A stretch of DNA of 22,725 nt from a virus. Its lineage: Duplodnaviria > Heunggongvirae > Uroviricota > Caudoviricetes. This document shows positions 2,424 to 22,725 of the stretch, in pieces. Every line of letters begins with the position of its first letter. Positions within the stretch are counted from its first letter, which is position 1. Below the pieces are notes generated by a model. It was given only the letters and a program-made list of their open reading frames with translations, was not told the origin of the DNA and searched no databases. The stretch lies in the IMG/VR virus record IMGVR_UViG_2681813227_000023, positions 1-22,725 of that record; one strand, written 5' to 3'. A program made the translations under genes and the position numbers.

Positions 2424-3241
2424 ACGTACATATCCTGTTTACGTGCCCAGTCAGGGCGTTTAATAATTTCCACTCCGCCCCATTCATCGTTGATGCGGCA
2501 TTCGTGATAGGTATTCAGATCCCGGCGGAACAGAGCGTTCCCGGCATCGACATCTGGCGCATCCAGCTCGAACACGCGTACCGGATACCGACCACAATCA
2601 ATGCTTTCGCTCACGGCAAGAAAGAAAAAACCATGCGGCTGACCAGTAACCCTCATTGCGCCTTCGCGGTACATTGCGTCCTGCACGTGGTAGCGGAATT
2701 CCTCGATGTGACGTGCAAAACGGTCCATATCTGCAACCTTTTTCACGTCGACGATCACGTTGTGCTCGTTCAGCCATTTGTCTGGACGAATTCGGCACAA
2801 CTCACCCGTCTCTTCATCGTTCCAGTACATTGATGCTTCGCAGTAACCAGGTGCTTCCAACATCCAGCGTGCCGCTGGATGAGCCATTGCGCTATCACGC
2901 ATCAGCTCCAGTTTTCGCCACTGCTCGACATCAAGTACCGTAATACCCATATCCGCCACATCACGAAGAAGCATTTCTTCGTCAGCTTTACCTTGTTTTG
3001 TCCGACGATCGAATTTCGGTGAAACGATGAAGCGTTTGTCGAATTCTCCAGGTTCCAGAAGCAGGCAGTGCAATGCGGTTCCCATATCCAGTGCAGACTT
3101 TTTCTCTTCGTCTTCTGGTGCTGCCTGAACCCATTTAAGAAGCGCCGGATTCTTGGCAACCATGTCCAGTTGCGACTTACTCACGCCGTCACCTGCGTGG
3201 TAGTCTTCGTTGCTGATGTCGAAATAAATTCCCGGTTTCAT
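2420..3241 (-). CDS. PD-(D/E)XK exonuclease, RecE C-terminal-domain-like / exonuclease VIII-like (273 aa)
   Basis: N-terminal GIYFDISNEDYHAGDG and a D...VDVKK nuclease core (CRIRPDKWLNEHNVIVDVKKV). Sits directly upstream of and coupled to the Bet/RecT gene, the usual exo plus annealase pairing. Confidence 0.7.
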   Translation of the reverse strand: MKPGIYFDISNEDYHAGDGVSKSQLDMVAKNPALLKWVQAAPEDEEKKSALDMGTALHCLLLEPGEFDKRFIVSPKFDRRTKQGKADEEMLLRDVADMGITVLDVEQWRKLELMRDSAMAHPAARWMLEAPGYCEASMYWNDEETGELCRIRPDKWLNEHNVIVDVKKVADMDRFARHIEEFRYHVQDAMYREGAMRVTGQPHGFFFLAVSESIDCGRYPVRVFELDAPDVDAGNALFRRDLNTYHECRINDEWGGVEIIKRPDWARKQDMYV

Positions 3242-3539: not shown

Positions 3540-3692
3540 TCAGCCCTCCCATATCTCGTTATCGTTGGCCACATCGCGAGCTTCTTTGCTGACGAAAGCC
3601 CACTTAATGCCTTCCTGTAAGGTGCGGAACTTCCAGCTCATGAATCCGCATGCAGTAACGCAGTACCAACCGTTGATGATTTTCCACTGCAT
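3540..3692 (-). CDS. Small ORF, 50 aa (MQWKIINGWYCVTACGFMSWKFRTLQEGIKWAFVSKEARDVANDNEIWEG), absent from the supplied ORF track
   Basis: Hand-translated: ATG 3692..3690, TGA 3542..3540. Its stop lies 2 nt before the ATG of the next gene (TGATAATG) and GAGGT lies 9 nt upstream of its start. First ORF downstream of the leftward operator pair. Confidence 0.35.
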   Translation of the reverse strand: MQWKIINGWYCVTACGFMSWKFRTLQEGIKWAFVSKEARDVANDNEIWEG

Positions 3693-3711
3693 AACTTGTT
3701 ACCTCGGTCTG

Positions 3712-3726
3712 TTACCGTTGAGGTAA
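3712..3726. promoter_or_regulatory. Operator-like palindrome TTACCgttgaGGTAA (leftward operator region, site 1)
   Basis: Perfect 5-bp inverted half-sites with 5-bp spacer; one of six copies in the window. An extra TTACC half-site lies at 3699..3703. Confidence 0.5.
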
Positions 3727-3774
3727 TAATTATGCGTATTTGGTTTGATGTCAATAGATATGAGTTAAAAAAAA

Positions 3775-3789
3775 TTACCCATTAGGTAA
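3775..3789. promoter_or_regulatory. Operator-like palindrome TTACCcattaGGTAA (leftward operator region, site 2)
   Basis: Same motif, 63 bp centre-to-centre from site 1, between the repressor-gene terminator and the first leftward ORF. Confidence 0.5.
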
Positions 3790-3802
3790 TAGTATAGGCA
3801 AT

Positions 3803-3826
3803 AAAAAAGCCGCCAGAAGGCGGCTT
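3803..3826 (-). terminator. Rho-independent terminator downstream of the repressor gene
   Basis: On the minus strand GCCGCC-TTCT-GGCGGC followed by TTTTTT, about 20 nt after the repressor stop codon. Confidence 0.65.
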
Positions 3827-3846
3827 ACTTACTGAAAAGTATGATT

Positions 3847-4431
3847 TTATTGTTTGTTTTTTTCGTTCTGGTTGATGACAAATTCAATGTAACTTTCGAT
3901 CTTTGCTTTCTCGGTTTCAGGTAACAATGCGTAGCGCGAGCGGTCATAGTTGATAGTTGCAGGGTCGTGCGGGTGAATCAGTAGTTCATATCCGTGACGC
4001 CCGAATGCGGATGCAACATTCTCCAGGGTGGAAATGGAAACGCTGACCTCATTGTTTAACAGGCGGCTGATTGTCACCTGGGCGACGCCGGATGCGCGGT
4101 GAAGTTTTCCCTGTGTTGAAAGGTCGCGGCTTTCGCTCATCCAGCGTTCCAGGTTGTGAGCCGCCAGCTGACCAATGTCGCTTGGGCCGACAGGCTGAAA
4201 ACCTTCCTGAGAAAGCGAGCGATCGATATCAAGCCAGTTACGGGGTTTATTGGCGGCAGCTTCAATTTTTCGCGCAACCTGGTCGCCGATAACCTTCTTG
4301 CCAAGAGCCCAGCGGTTTACCAGATTTGCCTGAGTTCCAAGTTTTTCTGCCATCCGCGTCTGAACACCATTGAATTCACGGTCGATCAAGTCGTTGAGAT
4401 TTTGCCTGCGGACGTCCTGGATACTTTTCAT
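3847..4431 (-). CDS. Putative immunity repressor with two HTH-like segments and no S24 peptidase domain (194 aa)
   Basis: HTH-like stretches QTRMAEKLGTQANLVNRW and VAQVTISRLLNNEVSVSISTLENVASAFG. Transcribed divergently from a Cro-like gene across an operator-bearing intergenic region. No G-S-M / Ser-Lys dyad autocleavage motif seen. Confidence 0.65.
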   Translation of the reverse strand: MKSIQDVRRQNLNDLIDREFNGVQTRMAEKLGTQANLVNRWALGKKVIGDQVARKIEAAANKPRNWLDIDRSLSQEGFQPVGPSDIGQLAAHNLERWMSESRDLSTQGKLHRASGVAQVTISRLLNNEVSVSISTLENVASAFGRHGYELLIHPHDPATINYDRSRYALLPETEKAKIESYIEFVINQNEKNKQ

Positions 4432-4486
4432 TTTCTGGAAAATCGCCTCATATATGAATCAGTAGATGATTCAATTTAAAGCAATA

Positions 4487-4501
4487 TTACCCAACAGGTA
4501 A
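4487..4501. promoter_or_regulatory. Operator-like palindrome TTACCcaacaGGTAA in the repressor/cro intergenic region
   Basis: Same motif as above; further GGTAA (4514..4518) and TTACC (4535..4539) half-sites follow. Confidence 0.5.
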
Positions 4502-4585
4502 ATGCACCCCACAGGTAACTATCCTTGATTTTTGTTACCTTATGGGTGAATATTTATTATCTGAAATAAATATCAGGCAATAGCT

Positions 4586-4816
4586 ATGAGCGATAACGGA
4601 CATTTCGATTTCAAAAAGCACTGGCTTGCACTTACTCCGGATGAGCGTGAAGCCTTCGCACAGGAAGCCGGAACGACGAGTCACTATATCCAGACTCACT
4701 TAACAGGTAAGCGCAAAATGCCAGGTAAGGTATTGATGAATGGGCTTTTTAAAGCCTGTAAAACAAGACAATGGCTGCGCTCAAAAGCAGAACTGGCATA
4801 CTTCTTCTACTCATGA
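4586..4816 (+). CDS. Cro-like small DNA-binding regulator (76 aa)
   Basis: Small basic protein transcribed divergently from the repressor; HTH-like segment FAQEAGTTSHYIQTHLTGKRK. Assignment rests mainly on position. Confidence 0.55.
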   Translation: MSDNGHFDFKKHWLALTPDEREAFAQEAGTTSHYIQTHLTGKRKMPGKVLMNGLFKACKTRQWLRSKAELAYFFYS

Positions 4817-4835
4817 TATCCAGCCACAACCCTCT

Positions 4836-4861
4836 GTAGACCGCCATCCGGCGGTCTTTTC
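4836..4861 (+). terminator. Rho-independent terminator after the cro-like gene
   Basis: Stem AGACCGCC / GGCGGTCT with ATCC loop followed by TTTT, about 20 nt after the stop. Confidence 0.55.
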
Positions 4862-4966
4862 ATATCTATTCGCACCTCAAAGGTAATAAAAAACCAAATC
4901 TGGTTGACCTTTTTTTTGTGTCAGCACAAAATGACCGTAATCCCAATACTAATAACAGGGCTTACC

Positions 4967-5167
4967 ATGGAAATCATTACACGTATTGATGCCGCAAAGC
5001 GCGGACTTAAACGCTACTACACCGGAAAACCATGTAAGCACGGACATGACAGTGAACGCTGGGTTTACAACGGACACTGTGTTGAGTGCACCATGGAATC
5101 AAACCGTCGTATCAGGGCAGAGATTAAGCAGATCATGATTAATTCCTCCCCACAACATTCAAGCTGA
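4967..5167 (+). CDS. Small putative zinc-binding protein (66 aa; C-x-H-G-H ... C-x-x-C), cII-position gene
   Basis: ATG at 4967 with AGGG 9 nt upstream (the ORF-track start at 4904 is TTG). KPCKHGH...HCVEC motif. Function unknown. Confidence 0.45.
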   Translation: MEIITRIDAAKRGLKRYYTGKPCKHGHDSERWVYNGHCVECTMESNRRIRAEIKQIMINSSPQHSS

Positions 5168-5182
5168 TAGCGGAGATTAATC

Positions 5183-5998
5183 ATGAGCAGACATGCAACA
5201 GATTGGGCCTGGGAGACAGATCCGGGTAGCTCATCATTAAAGCTCATACTGCTCTCGATGGCTGACAGAGCCGATGAATATAACCTCTGCTACCCCAGCA
5301 TAGAACGCCTCGTTAAAGACACTTGCCTGAATAAAAAAACCGTGCAGGCCGGGCTTATATCGCTCATGAAAATGGGGCTTATTTCAGATACCGGAGAGAG
5401 AAAGGGAGCGACAAAAAGAGTGCGGGTTTTCTCTCTTAATATAACCAAAAACGGGAACATTAAAGGCAACCGGGAGGGGGGCAATGAACCCGAAAACGGT
5501 AATGTTACCGAAAACGGGAATATACCCAAAAACGGGATGTTGAATGATCCCAAAAACGGGATGTTGAATGATCCCAAAAACGGGATCCAGAACCAGTCAT
5601 ATAACCAGTCATTTAACCAAGAGAGGGAGAGCAGGACAAAAAGCGGGGATTCTGTGCCTCATGACCCCGGAGCAAACAACGCCGTGATGAATAACTTTGT
5701 TCCTCCTGGTGGGCCAGGGCAATTAGGCAAATTTGTCATGCATGAACAATGGCAGCCATCAGATGACTTTCTTCGGAAAAGCTCATTGCAGGGGATCTAC
5801 CTGGACAGTCTGCCAACGGCACAGGAACTTGCAGAGTTCAGAATTTACTGGATGGCTGAGGGTAAGGCATACCATCAGGCACAGTGGGAGCAGAAGCTGG
5901 CAAGGCGGCTGCAGATTAGCAGACAGAAGCAATCAACATTACCTGATAACAACGTTCCGCACTGGAACAGCCCTGAAGCATGGGAGGATTTCTTGTGA
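5183..5998 (+). CDS. Replication initiator (lambda O-like role): N-terminal winged-helix, internal iteron-encoded repeats, DnaT-like C-terminus (271 aa)
   Basis: N-terminal ...LKLILLSMADRADEYNLCYPSIERLVKDTCLNKKTVQAGLISL resembles phage replisome-organiser HTH domains. Central low-complexity KNG-repeat region is encoded by DNA iterons. GGAG SD before ATG 5183. Sits directly upstream of the P-like gene. Confidence 0.7.
   Translation: MSRHATDWAWETDPGSSSLKLILLSMADRADEYNLCYPSIERLVKDTCLNKKTVQAGLISLMKMGLISDTGERKGATKRVRVFSLNITKNGNIKGNREGGNEPENGNVTENGNIPKNGMLNDPKNGMLNDPKNGIQNQSYNQSFNQERESRTKSGDSVPHDPGANNAVMNNFVPPGGPGQLGKFVMHEQWQPSDDFLRKSSLQGIYLDSLPTAQELAEFRIYWMAEGKAYHQAQWEQKLARRLQISRQKQSTLPDNNVPHWNSPEAWEDFL
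5445..5586. repeat. Iteron array (six copies of approximately CC(C/A)AAAACGGGA) inside the initiator gene: candidate replication origin
   Basis: Copies at about 5445, 5489, 5507, 5525, 5548 and 5572, the last three within an almost exact 24-bp tandem repeat (atcccaaaaacgggatgttgaatg); further short AACCAGTCAT repeats follow. Confidence 0.6.
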
Positions 5999-6817: not shown

Positions 6818-6832
6818 TTACCCATCAGGTAA
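6818..6832. promoter_or_regulatory. Operator-like palindrome TTACCcatcaGGTAA downstream of the P-like gene
   Basis: Same TTACC-N5-GGTAA motif, outside the immunity region. Confidence 0.45.
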
Positions 6833-6879: not shown

Positions 6880-6894
6880 TTACCTTAGAGGTAA
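6880..6894. promoter_or_regulatory. Operator-like palindrome TTACCttagaGGTAA just upstream of the 6898 start codon
   Basis: Same motif, 62 bp from the 6818 site; its right arm overlaps the ribosome-binding region of the next gene. Confidence 0.45.
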
Positions 6895-6897
6895 ATC

Positions 6898-7251
6898 ATG
6901 AGAAAACAGATACAGGCTCTTGGTCGACTCAAAACAGGCCAGATGAACAAAACAGAATCTGCGTATTGCCAGCACCTTGAGCAGCGTAAACGTGCAGGGG
7001 AAATCGCCTGGTATCGATTCGAGGGTATCAAGTTGCGGTTAGCTGACAACTGCTTCCTGACTGTAGATTTTGCCGTGATGTTGGCTGACGGGCAGTTGGT
7101 GATGGTGGACGTTAAGGGAAGTAAGTCAGTCTTTACTGACGATGCGAGAGTCAAGATGAAGGTTGCGGCAGACAGCTATCCGTTTGTCTTTCAGGTTGCT
7201 TATCCAAAACCTAAAAAGCTCGGTGGTGGATGGGAGGTTGAGGAACTATGA
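6898..7251 (+). CDS. DUF1064-like phage protein (117 aa)
   Basis: Recalled resemblance to DUF1064 phage proteins (ESAYCQHLEQRKRAGEIAWYRFEGIKLRL...FLTVDFAVMLADGQLVMVDVKG). Stop overlaps the HNH gene start. Confidence 0.5.
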   Translation: MRKQIQALGRLKTGQMNKTESAYCQHLEQRKRAGEIAWYRFEGIKLRLADNCFLTVDFAVMLADGQLVMVDVKGSKSVFTDDARVKMKVAADSYPFVFQVAYPKPKKLGGGWEVEEL

Positions 7252-14547: not shown

Positions 14548-14754
14548 ATGTGCATGGGTAGCTCACCGTCAGTGCCTGCAACACCAGAAGTTCAGGCAGC
14601 ACCACAGGAGCAGGATGCCGCCGTTGTTGATGCCCGCAACGAAGAAACTCGTCGCCGTCGCGCTGCTGCTGGTCGTAGTTCTACGCTGCTTACCGGTTCT
14701 CAGGGCGACACATCAACCGCTAATACCAGCGGTAAAACGCTACTTGGTCAGTAA
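14548..14754 (+). CDS. Hypothetical small Arg-rich protein (68 aa) preceding the portal gene
   Basis: ATG with GGAG SD; the leader GGAGTCATTGA is repeated identically before the portal ATG. Arg-rich stretch EETRRRRAAAGR. The overlapping 14528 frame looks less coding-like. Confidence 0.45.
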   Translation: MCMGSSPSVPATPEVQAAPQEQDAAVVDARNEETRRRRAAAGRSSTLLTGSQGDTSTANTSGKTLLGQ

Positions 14755-14768
14755 CCGGAGTCATTGAA

Positions 14769-16448
14769 ATGGCGGAAACAACTAAAGAGCGATTGAACAA
14801 ACAGTTCGCACAACTTGAAAGCGAGCGTCAGTCGTTCGAGCCGCACTGGCGCGAGTTGAGTGATTACATCAACCCGCGTGGTTCCCGCTTTCTGACTTCT
14901 GAGGTCAACCGTAACGATCGACGCAATACACGCATTATTGATTCAACCGGGACTATGGCGGCGCGCACTCTCGCCAGCGGCATGATGTCAGGCATCACAA
15001 GCCCCGCGCGTCCGTGGTTTCGCCTGGCTACGCCAGATCCTGAAATGATGGATTATGGCCCTGTTAAGTTGTGGCTTGAGGCAGTGCAGAACCGCATGAA
15101 CGATATGTTCAATAAGTCGAATCTCTATCAGTCGCTGCCGCAGTTATACGGAAGCCTCGGCACATACAGCACCGGTGCAATGGCGGTACTGGAGGATGAC
15201 GAGGACATCATTCGCACAATGCCATTCCCGATAGGCAGTTACTACCTTGCTAACTCACCTCGTGGCAGTGTGGACACCTGTTTTCGCAAGTTCTCTATGA
15301 CTGTTCGTCAGCTTGTTCAGGAGTTCGGGCTAAATAACGTCAGCGAATCCGTAAAAAGCATGTGGGAAAGCGGCACCTACGAGAAGTGGATTGAAGTGAT
15401 GCATTCGGTTTACCCGAACATTGACCGCGATACATCGAAGCTGGATAGCAAGAACAAGCCATTCAAATCGGTTTATTACGAGGTTGGCGGCGATAACGAC
15501 AAGTTGTTGCGTGAGTCCGGATTCGATGAGTTTCCAATTATGGCTCCGCGCTGGGAAGTTAACGGCGAAGATGTTTATGGATCATCATGCCCGGGTATGC
15601 TGGCGCTTGGACCTGTTAAGGCATTGCAGCTTCTCCAGAAACGCAAGTCGCAGTTGATTGATAAAGCCACCAATCCGCCGATGGTTGCTCCGACTTCCCT
15701 CAAGAATCAGCGCGCCTCCCTTCTTCCTGGCGACATCACGTATATCGATCAGATTACTGGTCAGGATGGTTTCAGGCCTGCTTATCTGGTTAACCCCAGT
15801 ACAGCAGATTTGGTGGCAGACATTCAGGACACTCGTCAAATCATTAACAGCGCCTACTTTGTCGATCTGTTCATGATGTTGCAGAACATCAATACCCGCT
15901 CGATGCCTGTGGAAGCGGTGATCGAAATGAAAGAAGAAAAACTTCTGATGTTGGGGCCGGTTCTGGAGCGTCTGAACGACGAATGTCTTAATCCTCTCAT
16001 TGACCGCGCTTTCTCGATGATGGTGCGTAAAAACATGCTGCCGCCACCGCCTGACGCGATGGAAGGTATGCCCCTGAAGGTCGAATACATTTCCGTCATG
16101 GCTCAGGCGCAGAAGTCTATCGGCCTGTCCAGTCTGGCGTCTACGGTCAACTTCATTGGTCAACTTGCGCAAGCGAAACCAGAAGCTCTCGACAAACTCA
16201 ACGTTGATCAGGCGATCGATGCATTCGCTGATATGTCCGGAGTGTCTCCAACCGTCATTGTTCCGCAGGAACAGGTTGAGCAGGCTCGCCAGCAACGGGC
16301 ACAGCAACAACAGCAGCAACAAATGATGGCGATGGGGATGGCGGCGGCACAGGGTGCCAAGACGCTAAGCGAAGCTAAAACTTCGGATCCGAGTGTTTTG
16401 TCAGCTATGGCGAATGCAGTTAGTGGTCAGGGTGGGCAATCACAATGA
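14769..16448 (+). CDS. Portal / head-to-tail connector protein, T7 gp8-like (559 aa)
   Basis: Size, position after terminase, and Gln/Ala/Met-rich C-terminus (QARQQRAQQQQQQQMMAMGMAAAQGA) resembling the T7 gp8 C-terminus. Confidence 0.75.
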   Translation: MAETTKERLNKQFAQLESERQSFEPHWRELSDYINPRGSRFLTSEVNRNDRRNTRIIDSTGTMAARTLASGMMSGITSPARPWFRLATPDPEMMDYGPVKLWLEAVQNRMNDMFNKSNLYQSLPQLYGSLGTYSTGAMAVLEDDEDIIRTMPFPIGSYYLANSPRGSVDTCFRKFSMTVRQLVQEFGLNNVSESVKSMWESGTYEKWIEVMHSVYPNIDRDTSKLDSKNKPFKSVYYEVGGDNDKLLRESGFDEFPIMAPRWEVNGEDVYGSSCPGMLALGPVKALQLLQKRKSQLIDKATNPPMVAPTSLKNQRASLLPGDITYIDQITGQDGFRPAYLVNPSTADLVADIQDTRQIINSAYFVDLFMMLQNINTRSMPVEAVIEMKEEKLLMLGPVLERLNDECLNPLIDRAFSMMVRKNMLPPPPDAMEGMPLKVEYISVMAQAQKSIGLSSLASTVNFIGQLAQAKPEALDKLNVDQAIDAFADMSGVSPTVIVPQEQVEQARQQRAQQQQQQQMMAMGMAAAQGAKTLSEAKTSDPSVLSAMANAVSGQGGQSQ

Positions 16449-19649: not shown

Positions 19650-20254
19650 TGGCCTCTGTAGTAGAGATCTGTAATCGTGCGCTGTCCAATATTGGCAATA
19701 GCCGCAGCATTAACAGCCTGACGGAAGCCAGCAAGGAAGCGGGGGAATGTTCGCTGCACTTTGAGGCCTGCCGTGATGCTGTGCTTTCTGATTTTGACTG
19801 GAACTTTGCTACCAAACGCGTGGCGCTTGCAGATACGAGCAATCCACCGCCTGACTGGGAATATGCGTACCAGTACCCGTCCGATTGTCTGCGCATTACT
19901 GAAATTATGCTTCCTGGTGTACGCAATCCAACAGCAGCAATGCGCGTTCAGTACGAAGTTGGTGCAGACACCAACGGAACAGGAAAATTGATCTATACAG
20001 ACCAGCCGCAGGCATGGCTCAAGTATGTCTCTCGCGTTTCAGATGTGAACATGTTTGATGCCATTTTTATGGAGGCGCTGGCCTGGCGTCTTGCGGCAGC
20101 CATTAACATGGCGCTGACTGGGAATGCGGATCTCGGTACATTTGCTCTCAATATGTACAATCGCGTGATTCTTAGTGCTGGTTCGCATAGCCAGAATGAA
20201 TCACAGGAACCACAGCCACCGGTTGACGAGTTTACCATTGCGAGGTTGTCCTGA
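19649..20254 (+). CDS. Putative head-tail adaptor / tail tubular protein A-like (201 aa)
   Basis: Size and position match T7 gp11; N-terminal VEICNRALSNIG...INSL resembles the gp11-type N-terminus (VNDILASIG...VSTL). TGATG overlap with the upstream stop. Confidence 0.5.
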   Translation: MASVVEICNRALSNIGNSRSINSLTEASKEAGECSLHFEACRDAVLSDFDWNFATKRVALADTSNPPPDWEYAYQYPSDCLRITEIMLPGVRNPTAAMRVQYEVGADTNGTGKLIYTDQPQAWLKYVSRVSDVNMFDAIFMEALAWRLAAAINMALTGNADLGTFALNMYNRVILSAGSHSQNESQEPQPPVDEFTIARLS

Positions 20255-22725
20255 TGGCTATCAGTTGGATCCAGCCCAGCTTTGCTGGTGGTGAGATTGG
20301 ACCGTCGTTGTACGGTCGTATCGACATGGCGAAGTACCAGGTGGCATTGCGCAAGTGCGATAACTTTATCGTGCGGCAGTATGGCGGCGTTGAGAATCGA
20401 CCTGGTACGCGTTTTGTCGGTGCCGCCAAATACCCAAATCGGAAATGCCGCCTGATCCCGTTCCAGTTCTCGACGGTTCAGACCTATGCTCTGGAGTTCG
20501 GACACCAGTACATGCGCGTTATCAAAGATGGTGCGTTGGTGCTGAACAGCAGCAATGTTATTTATGAAATTGCCACGCCATATACTGAAGCCGATCTGTT
20601 CCGAATTAAATTCACGCAAAGCGCAGACGTGCTTACGCTTGTTCATCCGGCATACCCGCCGAAAGAGTTGCGTCGCTATGCGCATGACAACTGGCAACTG
20701 GTTGATGTGGTAACGAAGAACGGACCATTTGAAGATATCAATATTGACGAGTCAGTGACGGTTTATGCCAGCGCCAGCACCGGGACAATTACGTTAACGG
20801 CAAGCGCCTCTATTTTTGGCGCGGAGCAGGTAGGCAAATTGTTCTATCTGGAACAGCCAGCAGTGGATTCAGTACCGGTATGGGAAACCAGTAAGAGTAC
20901 GTCGATTGGCGATATTCGCCGTGCAGACAGTAACTACTATCGCGCCGTTACAGCAGGCAAAACAGGTACTTTGCGCCCTTCGCATACAGAAGGCACATCA
21001 TGGGATGGCTGGGGCGGATCCGGTGATGATGATACTGGCATTGAGTGGGAATATCTGCACAGTGGTTTTGGCATTGCCCGTATCACTGCTGCAAATGGAA
21101 CTACTGCAACTGCCGAGGTGATTTCCTATATCCCTTCGCAGGTAGTTGGCGAGGATAATGCCAGCTATAAATGGGCTAAATATGCCTGGAACAGTGTTAA
21201 TGGTTATCCTGGCACTGTTGTTTATTATCAACAACGTCTTTACTTCGCCGCATCGACTGCGTTCCCTCAGACTATCTGGGCCAGCCGTACCGGGGATTAT
21301 AAGGATTTTGGCAAAAGCAATCCTACGCAGGATGACGACAGAATTATCTACACCTATGCCGGGCGTCAGGTTAATGAGATCCGTCACCTGATTGATGTTG
21401 GTTCTCTGGTGGCGCTGACTTCCGGAGGTGAGTACGTCATCACCGGCGACCAGAACAAAGTGTTAACCCCATCATCATTTGCATTCAGCTCTCAGGGATC
21501 AAATGGCTCAAGCAACGTCCCACCAATTGCCGTAGCGAATATTGCTCTGTTCGTCCAGGAGAAAGGCAGTGTTGTCCGTGATCTGGCCTACTCATTCGAT
21601 GTTGACGGCTATCAGGGGAACGACCTGACCATCCTTGCCAATCATCTTTTTCAGAAGCACAGCATTGTTGACTGGTGCTTCTCTATTGTCCCTTACTCCA
21701 GCGCCTTCTGCATTCGTGATGACGGTAAATTACTGGTGATGACCTATTTGCGTGATCAGCAGGTTTTTGCATGGGCACCACAATCCAGTACCGGAAAATA
21801 TGAAAGCACATGCAGTATCAGCGAAGGCAATGAAGATGCGGTGTATTTCGTCGTTAACCGAACCGTTAACGGGCAAACAGTGAGATACATCGAGCGGCTG
21901 TCCAGCCGTTTATTTACCAGCGATGAAGATGCTTTCTTTGTTGATTCTGGCCTTAGCTATGATGGAAGAAATACGTCTGACAGAACGATGACCATCACTG
22001 GTGGCTCTGGCGAATGGGATTATCGCGCGGAATATACAATCAGTGTTTCTGGTGGTGCGTACTTCACCAGTAGTGATGTCGGCGCGCAACTACAGTTCCC
22101 TTATGCCGGAACTGATCCTGATACTGGCGATGAAGTGTCAAAAGAATTACGTTGCGACATTATTTCTGTAACCAGTAATACCGCAGTAGTGGTTCGTGCT
22201 AACAGGAACGTCCCGCCATCCCTCAGGAATGTGTCCACCACGAACTGGCAGATGGCGCGCCGGACATTTGGAGGCCTGTCTCATCTTGAAGGCCAGACCG
22301 TAAACATTCTCTCTGATGCGAACGTGGAACCACAGAAAGTGGTTTCCGGAGGTGCCGTCACGCTGGAATCTCCGGGGGCTGTAGTGCACATCGGCCTGCC
22401 AATAACTGCTGAATTCGAAACACTGGATATCAACATTAACGGACAGGAAACGCTGCTGGACAAAAAACAGGTGATCCCCTCCGTTACTCTGGTTGTGAAT
22501 GCCAGTCGCGGCATCTGGGCGACTACGCCTGGCGGTAAATGGTACGAATATCCACAGCGTGAATTCGAGTTCTACGATGATCCTGTTGATGATGCTACCG
22601 GAAAAGTAGAAGTGAAACTGGACAGTAACTGGGGCAAAAACGGACGTGTAAAAATCCGTCAGCTTGATCCGTTGCCGCTGTCTGTTCTTGCCGTTATTCC
22701 TCGCCTTACTGTTGGGGGATTCTGA
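20254..22725 (+). CDS. Putative tail tubular protein B / nozzle protein, T7 gp12-like (823 aa)
   Basis: Size and position match T7 gp12; N-terminal PSFAGGEIGPSLYGR...GGVENRPGT parallels T7 gp12 NLKGGISQQPD...GLQKRPP. Stop codon is at the window end. Confidence 0.55.
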   Translation: MAISWIQPSFAGGEIGPSLYGRIDMAKYQVALRKCDNFIVRQYGGVENRPGTRFVGAAKYPNRKCRLIPFQFSTVQTYALEFGHQYMRVIKDGALVLNSSNVIYEIATPYTEADLFRIKFTQSADVLTLVHPAYPPKELRRYAHDNWQLVDVVTKNGPFEDINIDESVTVYASASTGTITLTASASIFGAEQVGKLFYLEQPAVDSVPVWETSKSTSIGDIRRADSNYYRAVTAGKTGTLRPSHTEGTSWDGWGGSGDDDTGIEWEYLHSGFGIARITAANGTTATAEVISYIPSQVVGEDNASYKWAKYAWNSVNGYPGTVVYYQQRLYFAASTAFPQTIWASRTGDYKDFGKSNPTQDDDRIIYTYAGRQVNEIRHLIDVGSLVALTSGGEYVITGDQNKVLTPSSFAFSSQGSNGSSNVPPIAVANIALFVQEKGSVVRDLAYSFDVDGYQGNDLTILANHLFQKHSIVDWCFSIVPYSSAFCIRDDGKLLVMTYLRDQQVFAWAPQSSTGKYESTCSISEGNEDAVYFVVNRTVNGQTVRYIERLSSRLFTSDEDAFFVDSGLSYDGRNTSDRTMTITGGSGEWDYRAEYTISVSGGAYFTSSDVGAQLQFPYAGTDPDTGDEVSKELRCDIISVTSNTAVVVRANRNVPPSLRNVSTTNWQMARRTFGGLSHLEGQTVNILSDANVEPQKVVSGGAVTLESPGAVVHIGLPITAEFETLDININGQETLLDKKQVIPSVTLVVNASRGIWATTPGGKWYEYPQREFEFYDDPVDDATGKVEVKLDSNWGKNGRVKIRQLDPLPLSVLAVIPRLTVGGF

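Follow-up and report, generated by a model that had tools for sequence, protein, structure and literature searches.

The repressor locus and its prophage

The locus at positions 3847 to 4431 of the window, by which we mean the whole stretch of 22,725 nucleotides that was analysed, is an open reading frame, here called rep, which was confirmed exactly as given. A hairpin resembling an intrinsic terminator lies just downstream of it, and a cro-like gene is read in the divergent direction on its other side (Table 1). The product of rep shows 100% identity to the repressor encoded by the Escherichia phages phiV10 and vB_EcoP_ZX5 (ZX5; ORF21) and by ten other records, and the phages with this identical protein include vB_EcoP_PAS61 and the O157 typing phages 9 and 10. 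At the DNA level, positions 3600 to 5200, which cover the rep-cro region, share 98.4-98.6% identity with phiV10, PAS61, the O157 typing phages 9 and 10, and ZX5.

The gene order of the window follows that of phage SPC32H, both in its left part (methyltransferase, PerC, AlpA, RecT, exonuclease, two small genes and rep) and beyond rep (the divergent cro-like gene, then DnaT-like, P-like replication, terminase, Gp49, tRNA-Arg, portal and capsid genes), while the remaining ORFs of the left arm correspond to the DUF1382, MT-A70, PerC, AlpA, RecT and exonuclease genes of an annotated relative. Judged by these sequence comparisons, the window is a phiV10/epsilon15-like prophage (genus Uetakevirus). 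Its accessory genes differ from those of phiV10 and ZX5, which share the identical repressor. Relatives integrate at guaA. The closest match to the window is L003, a locus described below, in which an IS3-family element is inserted after the gene for an 823-aa protein. We also noted an HNH-endonuclease-like ORF at 7248-7856 (202 aa; phrog_1271, E=4e-23), with the DUF1064/resolvase-like gene on one side and Ea22-like genes on the other; at this position no gene is annotated in the close relative NRZ14408.

Copies of a 15-bp palindrome, TTACC-N5-GGTAA, occur on both sides of rep and elsewhere in the window. With at most one mismatch allowed, there are nine of them against 0.34 expected, a number that no shuffle reached. 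The three sites between rep and the cro-like gene have start-to-start spacings of 17 and 31 bp, to be compared with 17 and 30 bp for the corresponding sites of SPC32H (34390, 34407 and 34437). Furthermore, the GenBank record of epsilon15 annotates the motif as repressor-binding sites, on the syntenic PL side and upstream of the antirepressor gene ant. Positions, enrichment and the epsilon15 annotation together suggest that these sites are operators of the repressor, and the distant ones, at 6818, 11278 and 14443, which all have a syntenic equivalent in SPC32H, may allow the repressor, or another reader of the motif, to act directly on middle and late operons. In SPC32H the five base pairs at the centre of each operator are A/T-rich, whereas in the window they are of mixed composition, so that the two phages are probably of different immunity types.

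Table 1. Coordinates of rep, of the features around it and of the antirepressor gene. Positions refer to the window unless preceded by L003.
Feature	Position	Strand	Description
rep ORF	3847-4431	-	ATG start; 194 aa
cro-like gene	4586-4816	+	76 aa, divergent from rep; phrog_35 transcriptional repressor, E=5.6e-13
Intrinsic terminator-like hairpin	3807-3826	-	Just downstream of rep; 8-bp stem with 6 GC pairs, T-run
Putative rep-cro operator cluster	4487-4549		15-bp TTACC-N5-GGTAA at 4487-4501 and 4535-4549; variant GCACCCCACAGGTAA at 4504-4518
PR-like sigma-70 promoter of the cro-like gene	4532-4560	+	TTGTTA-17-TATTAT, from a consensus scan only; overlapped by the putative operator at 4535-4549
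Putative PL-side operators	3712-3726; 3775-3789		TTACCGTTGAGGTAA and TTACCCATTAGGTAA, respectively; flank a leftward promoter-like site
PL-like promoter	3754-3726	-	TTGACA-17-AATTAT; would drive the 50-aa/104-aa/exonuclease/RecT operon
Operator-like variant	4872-4886		GCACCTCAAAGGTAA; followed downstream by a promoter-like site (4904-4932) ahead of the replication genes
TTACC-N5-GGTAA pair	6818-6832; 6880-6894		In the gap from the P-like replication gene to the next operon; syntenic SPC32H pair at 35972 and 36034
Palindromes	11278-11292; 11296-11310		Start of the terminase small-subunit region; SPC32H has one, at 12, upstream of that gene
Palindrome	14443-14457		TTACCTGAAAGGTAA; upstream of the 68-aa/portal operon; SPC32H equivalent at 3175
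ant homologue	L003:22031-22288	-	85 aa; about 9.3-9.6 kb past the end of the window; adjoins the tailspike gene

Domain architecture of Rep

On the strength of homology, the product of rep is the immunity repressor (Rep) of this E. coli prophage. Residues 1-190 match residues 2-197 of PDB 5D50_A ('Repressor') with a phmmer E-value of 4e-42, and residues 89-190 match 5D4Z, a Rep C-terminal domain, with E=4e-20; both entries are Rep of the Salmonella phage SPC32H, so that a crystal structure fixes the fold for residues 1-190. A profile of six aligned Reps, from Escherichia, Enterobacter, Klebsiella and Salmonella phages, matched the SPC32H structure with E=3e-103 in a PDB profile search. By BLASTP the identity to SPC32H Rep is 42% overall (E=2e-53); it is highest for the N-terminal domain (53%), lower for the C-terminal tail (44%) and lowest for the middle HTH domain (33%). 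The earlier note had called the protein a putative immunity repressor with two HTH-like segments, and both descriptions hold, the former through this full-length homology and the identity to the phiV10 and ZX5 repressors, and the latter through two Pfam matches, a weaker one of YdaS/HigA type at residues 21-61 (E=3e-4) and one to HTH_3 (XRE-type) at residues 106-147 (E=1.2e-9).

Rep can thus be divided into an N-terminal HTH domain (residues ~1-72), a linker, an XRE-type HTH domain (~89-146) and a C-terminal tail (~147-190), with no S24 domain. The putative recognition helix of the N-terminal domain, NLVNRW (N36-L37-V38-N39-R40-W41), is invariant in all six aligned Reps, as are Y148, E149, I160, Y162, D163, Y167, L170, P171, E174, K175, K177, I178 and F184 in the C-terminal part. 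From its homology to 5D4Z, the tail is predicted to be the part that mediates tetramerisation and binding of the antirepressor Ant. For SPC32H Rep, PMC9986798 assigns both of these functions to the C-terminal domain, and published comparisons ascribe a p53-like tetramerisation fold to its structure.

The absence of an S24 peptidase motif, as remarked in the earlier note, was confirmed at permissive thresholds. Pfam returned no Peptidase_S24 match in Rep at E<=1, and no S24 chain was found among the PDB matches at E<=10, either with the single Rep sequence or with the six-member profile. The profile search, which addresses the possibility of a cryptic S24 fold raised earlier, led to SPC32H Rep instead, and the sole LexA-named match of the PDB searches is a 94-aa HTH domain (E=0.59). 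The dipeptides Ala-Gly and Cys-Gly, the cleavage sites of LexA, lambda CI and UmuD, occur nowhere in the 194 residues of Rep. We propose that Rep, having no protease domain of the LexA/CI type, would therefore stay uncleaved upon RecA activation, and that it has no self-cleaving domain because it is inactivated by a small antirepressor induced by DNA damage. Non-cleavage would follow here from the missing domain, and has an experimental basis for the SPC32H homologue only.

Two other readings of the gene were weighed against these data. It is scarcely credible that Rep is a LexA/CI-like repressor that cleaves itself by means of a protease domain diverged past recognition: the sole link to such a mechanism is that many lambdoid repressors work in this way, whereas the entire C-terminal half of Rep aligns with the solved 5D4Z structure and gives no S24 peptidase match, the Pfam and PDB searches were empty of S24 with the family profile included, and neither dipeptide is present. 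Nor do we give more than minimal credence to the ORF being an antitoxin-like or accessory HTH regulator, rather than the immunity repressor, to which the weak HigA/YdaS-type HTH similarities and the label 'VapI antidote' in the BP9 record might point. The ORF occupies the position of a repressor gene, in that a cro-like gene is read divergently from it and putative operator clusters flank it, an adjacent toxin gene is absent, and its homologue in SPC32H is a genetically and structurally defined Rep. Moreover, the identical protein shuts down lytic genes when overexpressed, as in ZX5, where free phage was abolished and the transcripts of endolysin and holin decreased by >99.9% (PMC9782041).

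A probable antirepressor gene beyond the window

The earlier note saw no antirepressor gene in the window, and our searches concur. A tblastn search of the window with SPC32H-type Ant gave noise only (best E=0.6), Pfam and PHROGs scans of its ORFs of unknown function yielded no antirepressor family, and the P22-type P22_AR_N domain (PF10547) is likewise absent from it, being found only beyond, at L003:18311-20047. The window ends exactly with the stop codon of the gene for the 823-aa structural protein, and synteny with SPC32H places ant beyond this right end. A search with the 823-aa protein led to L003 (GCA_046646205.1), a locus that extends 10 kb past the end of the window; the match between the two was established over two aligned stretches, with 3000 of 3000 nucleotides identical over 19726-22725 and 1400 of 1401 over 13380-14780.

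L003 carries, next to its tailspike gene, a homologue of ant (Table 1), whose product matches chain E of PDB 5D50, 'Anti-repressor protein', with E=1.6e-47. A predicted LexA box, TACTGTATATTTATACAGTT, ends ~20 nt before its ATG, and agrees at 18 of 20 positions with TACTGTATATATATACAGTA, which we take to be the LexA consensus; the form of the box upstream of ant can be written TACTGTAT-N-ATACAGT. The ant gene of SPC32H (86 aa, minus strand) directly precedes the tailspike gene, and the box TACTGTATGTTTATACAGTG stands just before ant. Despite diverged flanks, the box upstream of ant is kept in seven phages, namely, SPC32H, epsilon15, phiV10, two E. coli prophages (one of them NRZ14408), Enterobacter phage Tyrion and Klebsiella phage BUCT711.

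Rep and Ant also go together at a larger scale. Among 50,697 phage records, homologues of Rep were found in 36 and of Ant in 35, and all 35 records with Ant also have Rep; the one record with Rep only is BP9, a 138-kb entry. Every complete phage with this repressor carries ant by the tailspike gene. The Ant-binding part of Rep is 33-44% identical to that of SPC32H, whereas Ant is 86-88% identical, and it is plausible that the Ant of this prophage binds its Rep. The link between the window and this ant, a gene that itself lies outside the window, is a probable one that draws on L003, matching over the two stretches, and on family-wide synteny. The suggestion that a LexA-controlled antirepressor be sought elsewhere in the prophage thus led to ant, with its predicted box, in the matching L003, and the conjecture behind it, that induction depends on an antirepressor, gains support from the homology of Rep, from its identity to the phiV10 and ZX5 repressors, and from ant and its box outside the window.

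The boundary of the window is probably an assembly break at an insertion sequence, as suggested by three coinciding features: an IS3-family element in L003 (HTH_Tnp_1 plus rve; L003:12560-13773) begins 88 nt after the 823-aa gene, a contig of another assembly (L005) ends 31 nt after this gene, and the window stops at it. The first ORF after the element in L003 matches only the C-terminal 247 of the 534 positions of phrog_38128, so that this virion gene looks N-terminally truncated and the prophage may be defective; the L003 prophage may thus fail to form virions even with a functional switch. A deletion, by the IS3 element, of the ejection-protein genes that the loci L002 and L004 possess was considered and rejected, since the 247-aa ORF after the element is dissimilar to the 837-aa protein of L004; the downstream module of L003 also differs from that of L002 and L004.

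Within the window there is a perfect LexA-box core, CTGTACTGGTTTACAG, at 13913-13928 (CTGT-N8-ACAG), which was tried as a mark of the missing antirepressor and discarded. The neighbouring gene belongs to the Gp49 family (PF13876) and does not encode Ant, and a plus-strand ORF of 83 aa near the core overlaps the tRNA-Arg gene and is not credible. The core is situated ~73 nt upstream of the Gp49-family gene (13469-13840, minus strand), between this gene and tRNA-Arg. E. coli NRZ14408 retains it as CTGTACGGGTTTACAG, whereas SPC32H has no site there. The Gp49-family protein gives a weak PDB match to the anti-CBASS protein Acb4 (E=0.007), and its gene may be under SOS control.

Next to it, a GC-rich, ORF-free stretch of ~320 nt (14121-14440) lies upstream of tRNA-Arg(TCT) (14044-14120) on the minus strand. 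Its sequence hardly varies from the window to NRZ14408, although the neighbouring Gp49 gene is strongly diverged, and its predicted fold is more stable than that of shuffled sequences on the minus strand (z=-3.3, with 0 of 100 shuffles as good) and less markedly on the plus strand (z=-2.1). A search of Rfam gave no match at E<=1. Possible roles for this stretch are that of a structured leader or of a non-coding RNA transcribed together with the phage tRNA.

The proposed switch, its relatives and further Ant-domain proteins

Taking these observations together, we consider it highly probable that lysogeny of this prophage is kept by Rep and that induction proceeds via LexA-controlled Ant, without proteolysis of Rep. 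According to this proposal, the N-terminal HTH of Rep would bind the TTACC-N5-GGTAA sites, which overlap the early promoters that diverge to either side of rep, and so keep the lytic genes silent. Activation of RecA would leave Rep uncleaved, there being no LexA/CI-type protease domain to respond to it. DNA damage would, however, inactivate the host LexA that is expected to sit on the box overlapping the ant promoter. The Ant then produced would bind the C-terminal domain of Rep and convert the DNA-binding tetramer into dimers, whereby the operators would be freed and the lytic cycle started.

Much of this scheme is modelled on SPC32H. The studies of this phage by Kim and Ryu (2013, J Virol) and by Kim et al. 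(2016, PNAS) are said to have found that Rep remains uncleaved in the SOS response and that LexA represses ant; a point mutation of the LexA box, in phage SPC32N, reportedly makes Ant constitutive. Kim and Ryu are also said to have described the SPC32H-type Ant as small and structurally distinct from earlier antirepressors. The breaking of the Rep tetramer by Ant is known from SPC32H crystal structures, and by homology would take place here in the same way. As described in PMC9638917, it is the Rep tetramer that binds DNA, and an Ant tetramer binds two Rep dimers and so breaks the Rep tetramer.

Induction by DNA damage has been recorded for close relatives. Mitomycin C raised the titre of a ZX5 lysogen from 1e7 to 1e9 PFU/mL, and with a DNA-damaging microcin the induction of prophages belonging to the phiV10 species was 21- and 47-fold (bioRxiv 10.64898/2026.05.26.727859). 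Together with the literature on Rep and Ant, these inductions support an SOS relay that runs from LexA through Ant to Rep and involves no repressor proteolysis, which would make LexA and Ant, rather than repressor cleavage, the route by which SOS-inducing drugs act on such prophages to induce them.

The proposed switch of this prophage agrees with that of SPC32H in the family of the repressor over its full length, in domain order, genome position and the divergent cro-like gene, in operator motif and spacing, and in an Ant gene by the tailspike with its LexA box. It differs in the sequence of Rep, the two proteins having no more than 42% identity (53% for the N-terminal domain and 33-44% for the C-terminal half). 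With lambda CI and LexA it shares the role of maintaining lysogeny with SOS-responsive induction, as well as the divergent rep/cro layout and multiple operators; in contrast to them, Rep lacks the S24 domain, the cleavage site and the Ser-Lys dyad, and it would be protein binding, not proteolysis, that inactivates it. P22 ImmI (Arc/Mnt/Ant) and coliphage 186 Tum likewise exemplify induction based on antirepressors, and Tum, too, is LexA-controlled. The Gifsy phages, which are siphovirus prophages, have antirepressors that are structurally distinct. The comparison with them covered regulatory logic, which resembles that of the present case: in Gifsy-1 and Gifsy-3, repressors are combined with trans-acting antirepressors under LexA control (Lemire et al. 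2011, PMC3121763), that is, an uncleavable repressor and a LexA-repressed antirepressor gene distant from the immunity region.

The Rep family is already characterised, with a mechanism solved structurally for the SPC32H homologue, and the case is an ordinary one that poses no open puzzle. As a discovery it is of little importance, the repressor being identical to that of the published phages phiV10 and ZX5. Its use is rather in annotation, where the name SPC32H-type Rep should replace 'helix-turn-helix protein', and the 85-aa gene that stands unnamed by the tailspike in relatives should be labelled Ant.

The E. coli relatives differ from SPC32H in additional proteins that contain an extra Ant-like domain, a Bro-N protein and, in L003, a P22_AR_N protein. 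The 'anti-repressor' assayed in ZX5 is the Bro-N protein, ORF4, the 85-aa gene having been left as hypothetical (PMC9782041), and it could be asked whether this larger protein encoded downstream of ant, rather than the 85-aa Ant, is the main physiological inducer. We regard this as improbable. Overexpression of ORF4 did reduce repressor transcripts by 75%, while prophage titres went from 1e9 to 1e6 (PMC9782041), its C-terminal residues 150-223 share 42% identity with the small Ant, and residues 145-226 of the L003 Bro-N protein match the Ant family phrog_450; the gene is, moreover, on the same strand as ant and downstream of it, and may therefore share the LexA-controlled promoter. However, SPC32H and epsilon15 switch although in them ant is not followed by a Bro-N gene, and in phiV10 a terminator is annotated between the two genes. 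The overexpression assay is also an indirect one, which in ZX5 covered ORF4 and not the small Ant, and the actions of Ant and Bro-N need not be mutually exclusive. While LexA-controlled Ant remains our preferred inducer, the Bro-N protein probably acts on Rep through its Ant-like domain, which is only a mildly new point.

Beyond the end of the window, at L003:18311-21717, there is a module resembling P22 ImmI, with genes for an Arc-like protein of 143 aa, a protein of 55 aa and a P22_AR_N protein of 314 aa, as well as for the Bro-N protein. Both the Bro-N and the P22_AR_N proteins of L003 end in a phrog_450 domain, 42-44% identical to the small Ant, so that, in comparison with P22, the C-terminus of the P22_AR_N protein is replaced by, or fused to, an Ant-like domain. 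With three carriers of phrog_450 in L003, namely, LexA-controlled Ant, the Bro-N fusion and the P22_AR_N fusion, several inputs per repressor become possible, and it is tempting to speculate, though we would sooner doubt than assert it, that the Ant domain serves as a portable key to Rep by which independently regulated inputs could switch off one repressor.

Finally, the strong conservation of Ant, set against the 42% identity of the Reps, suggests that Ant might cross-induce heteroimmune relatives within Uetakevirus, as described for the Gifsy phages. Such an asymmetry would fit an antirepressor that reads a few invariant residues of Rep and acts across immunity types.
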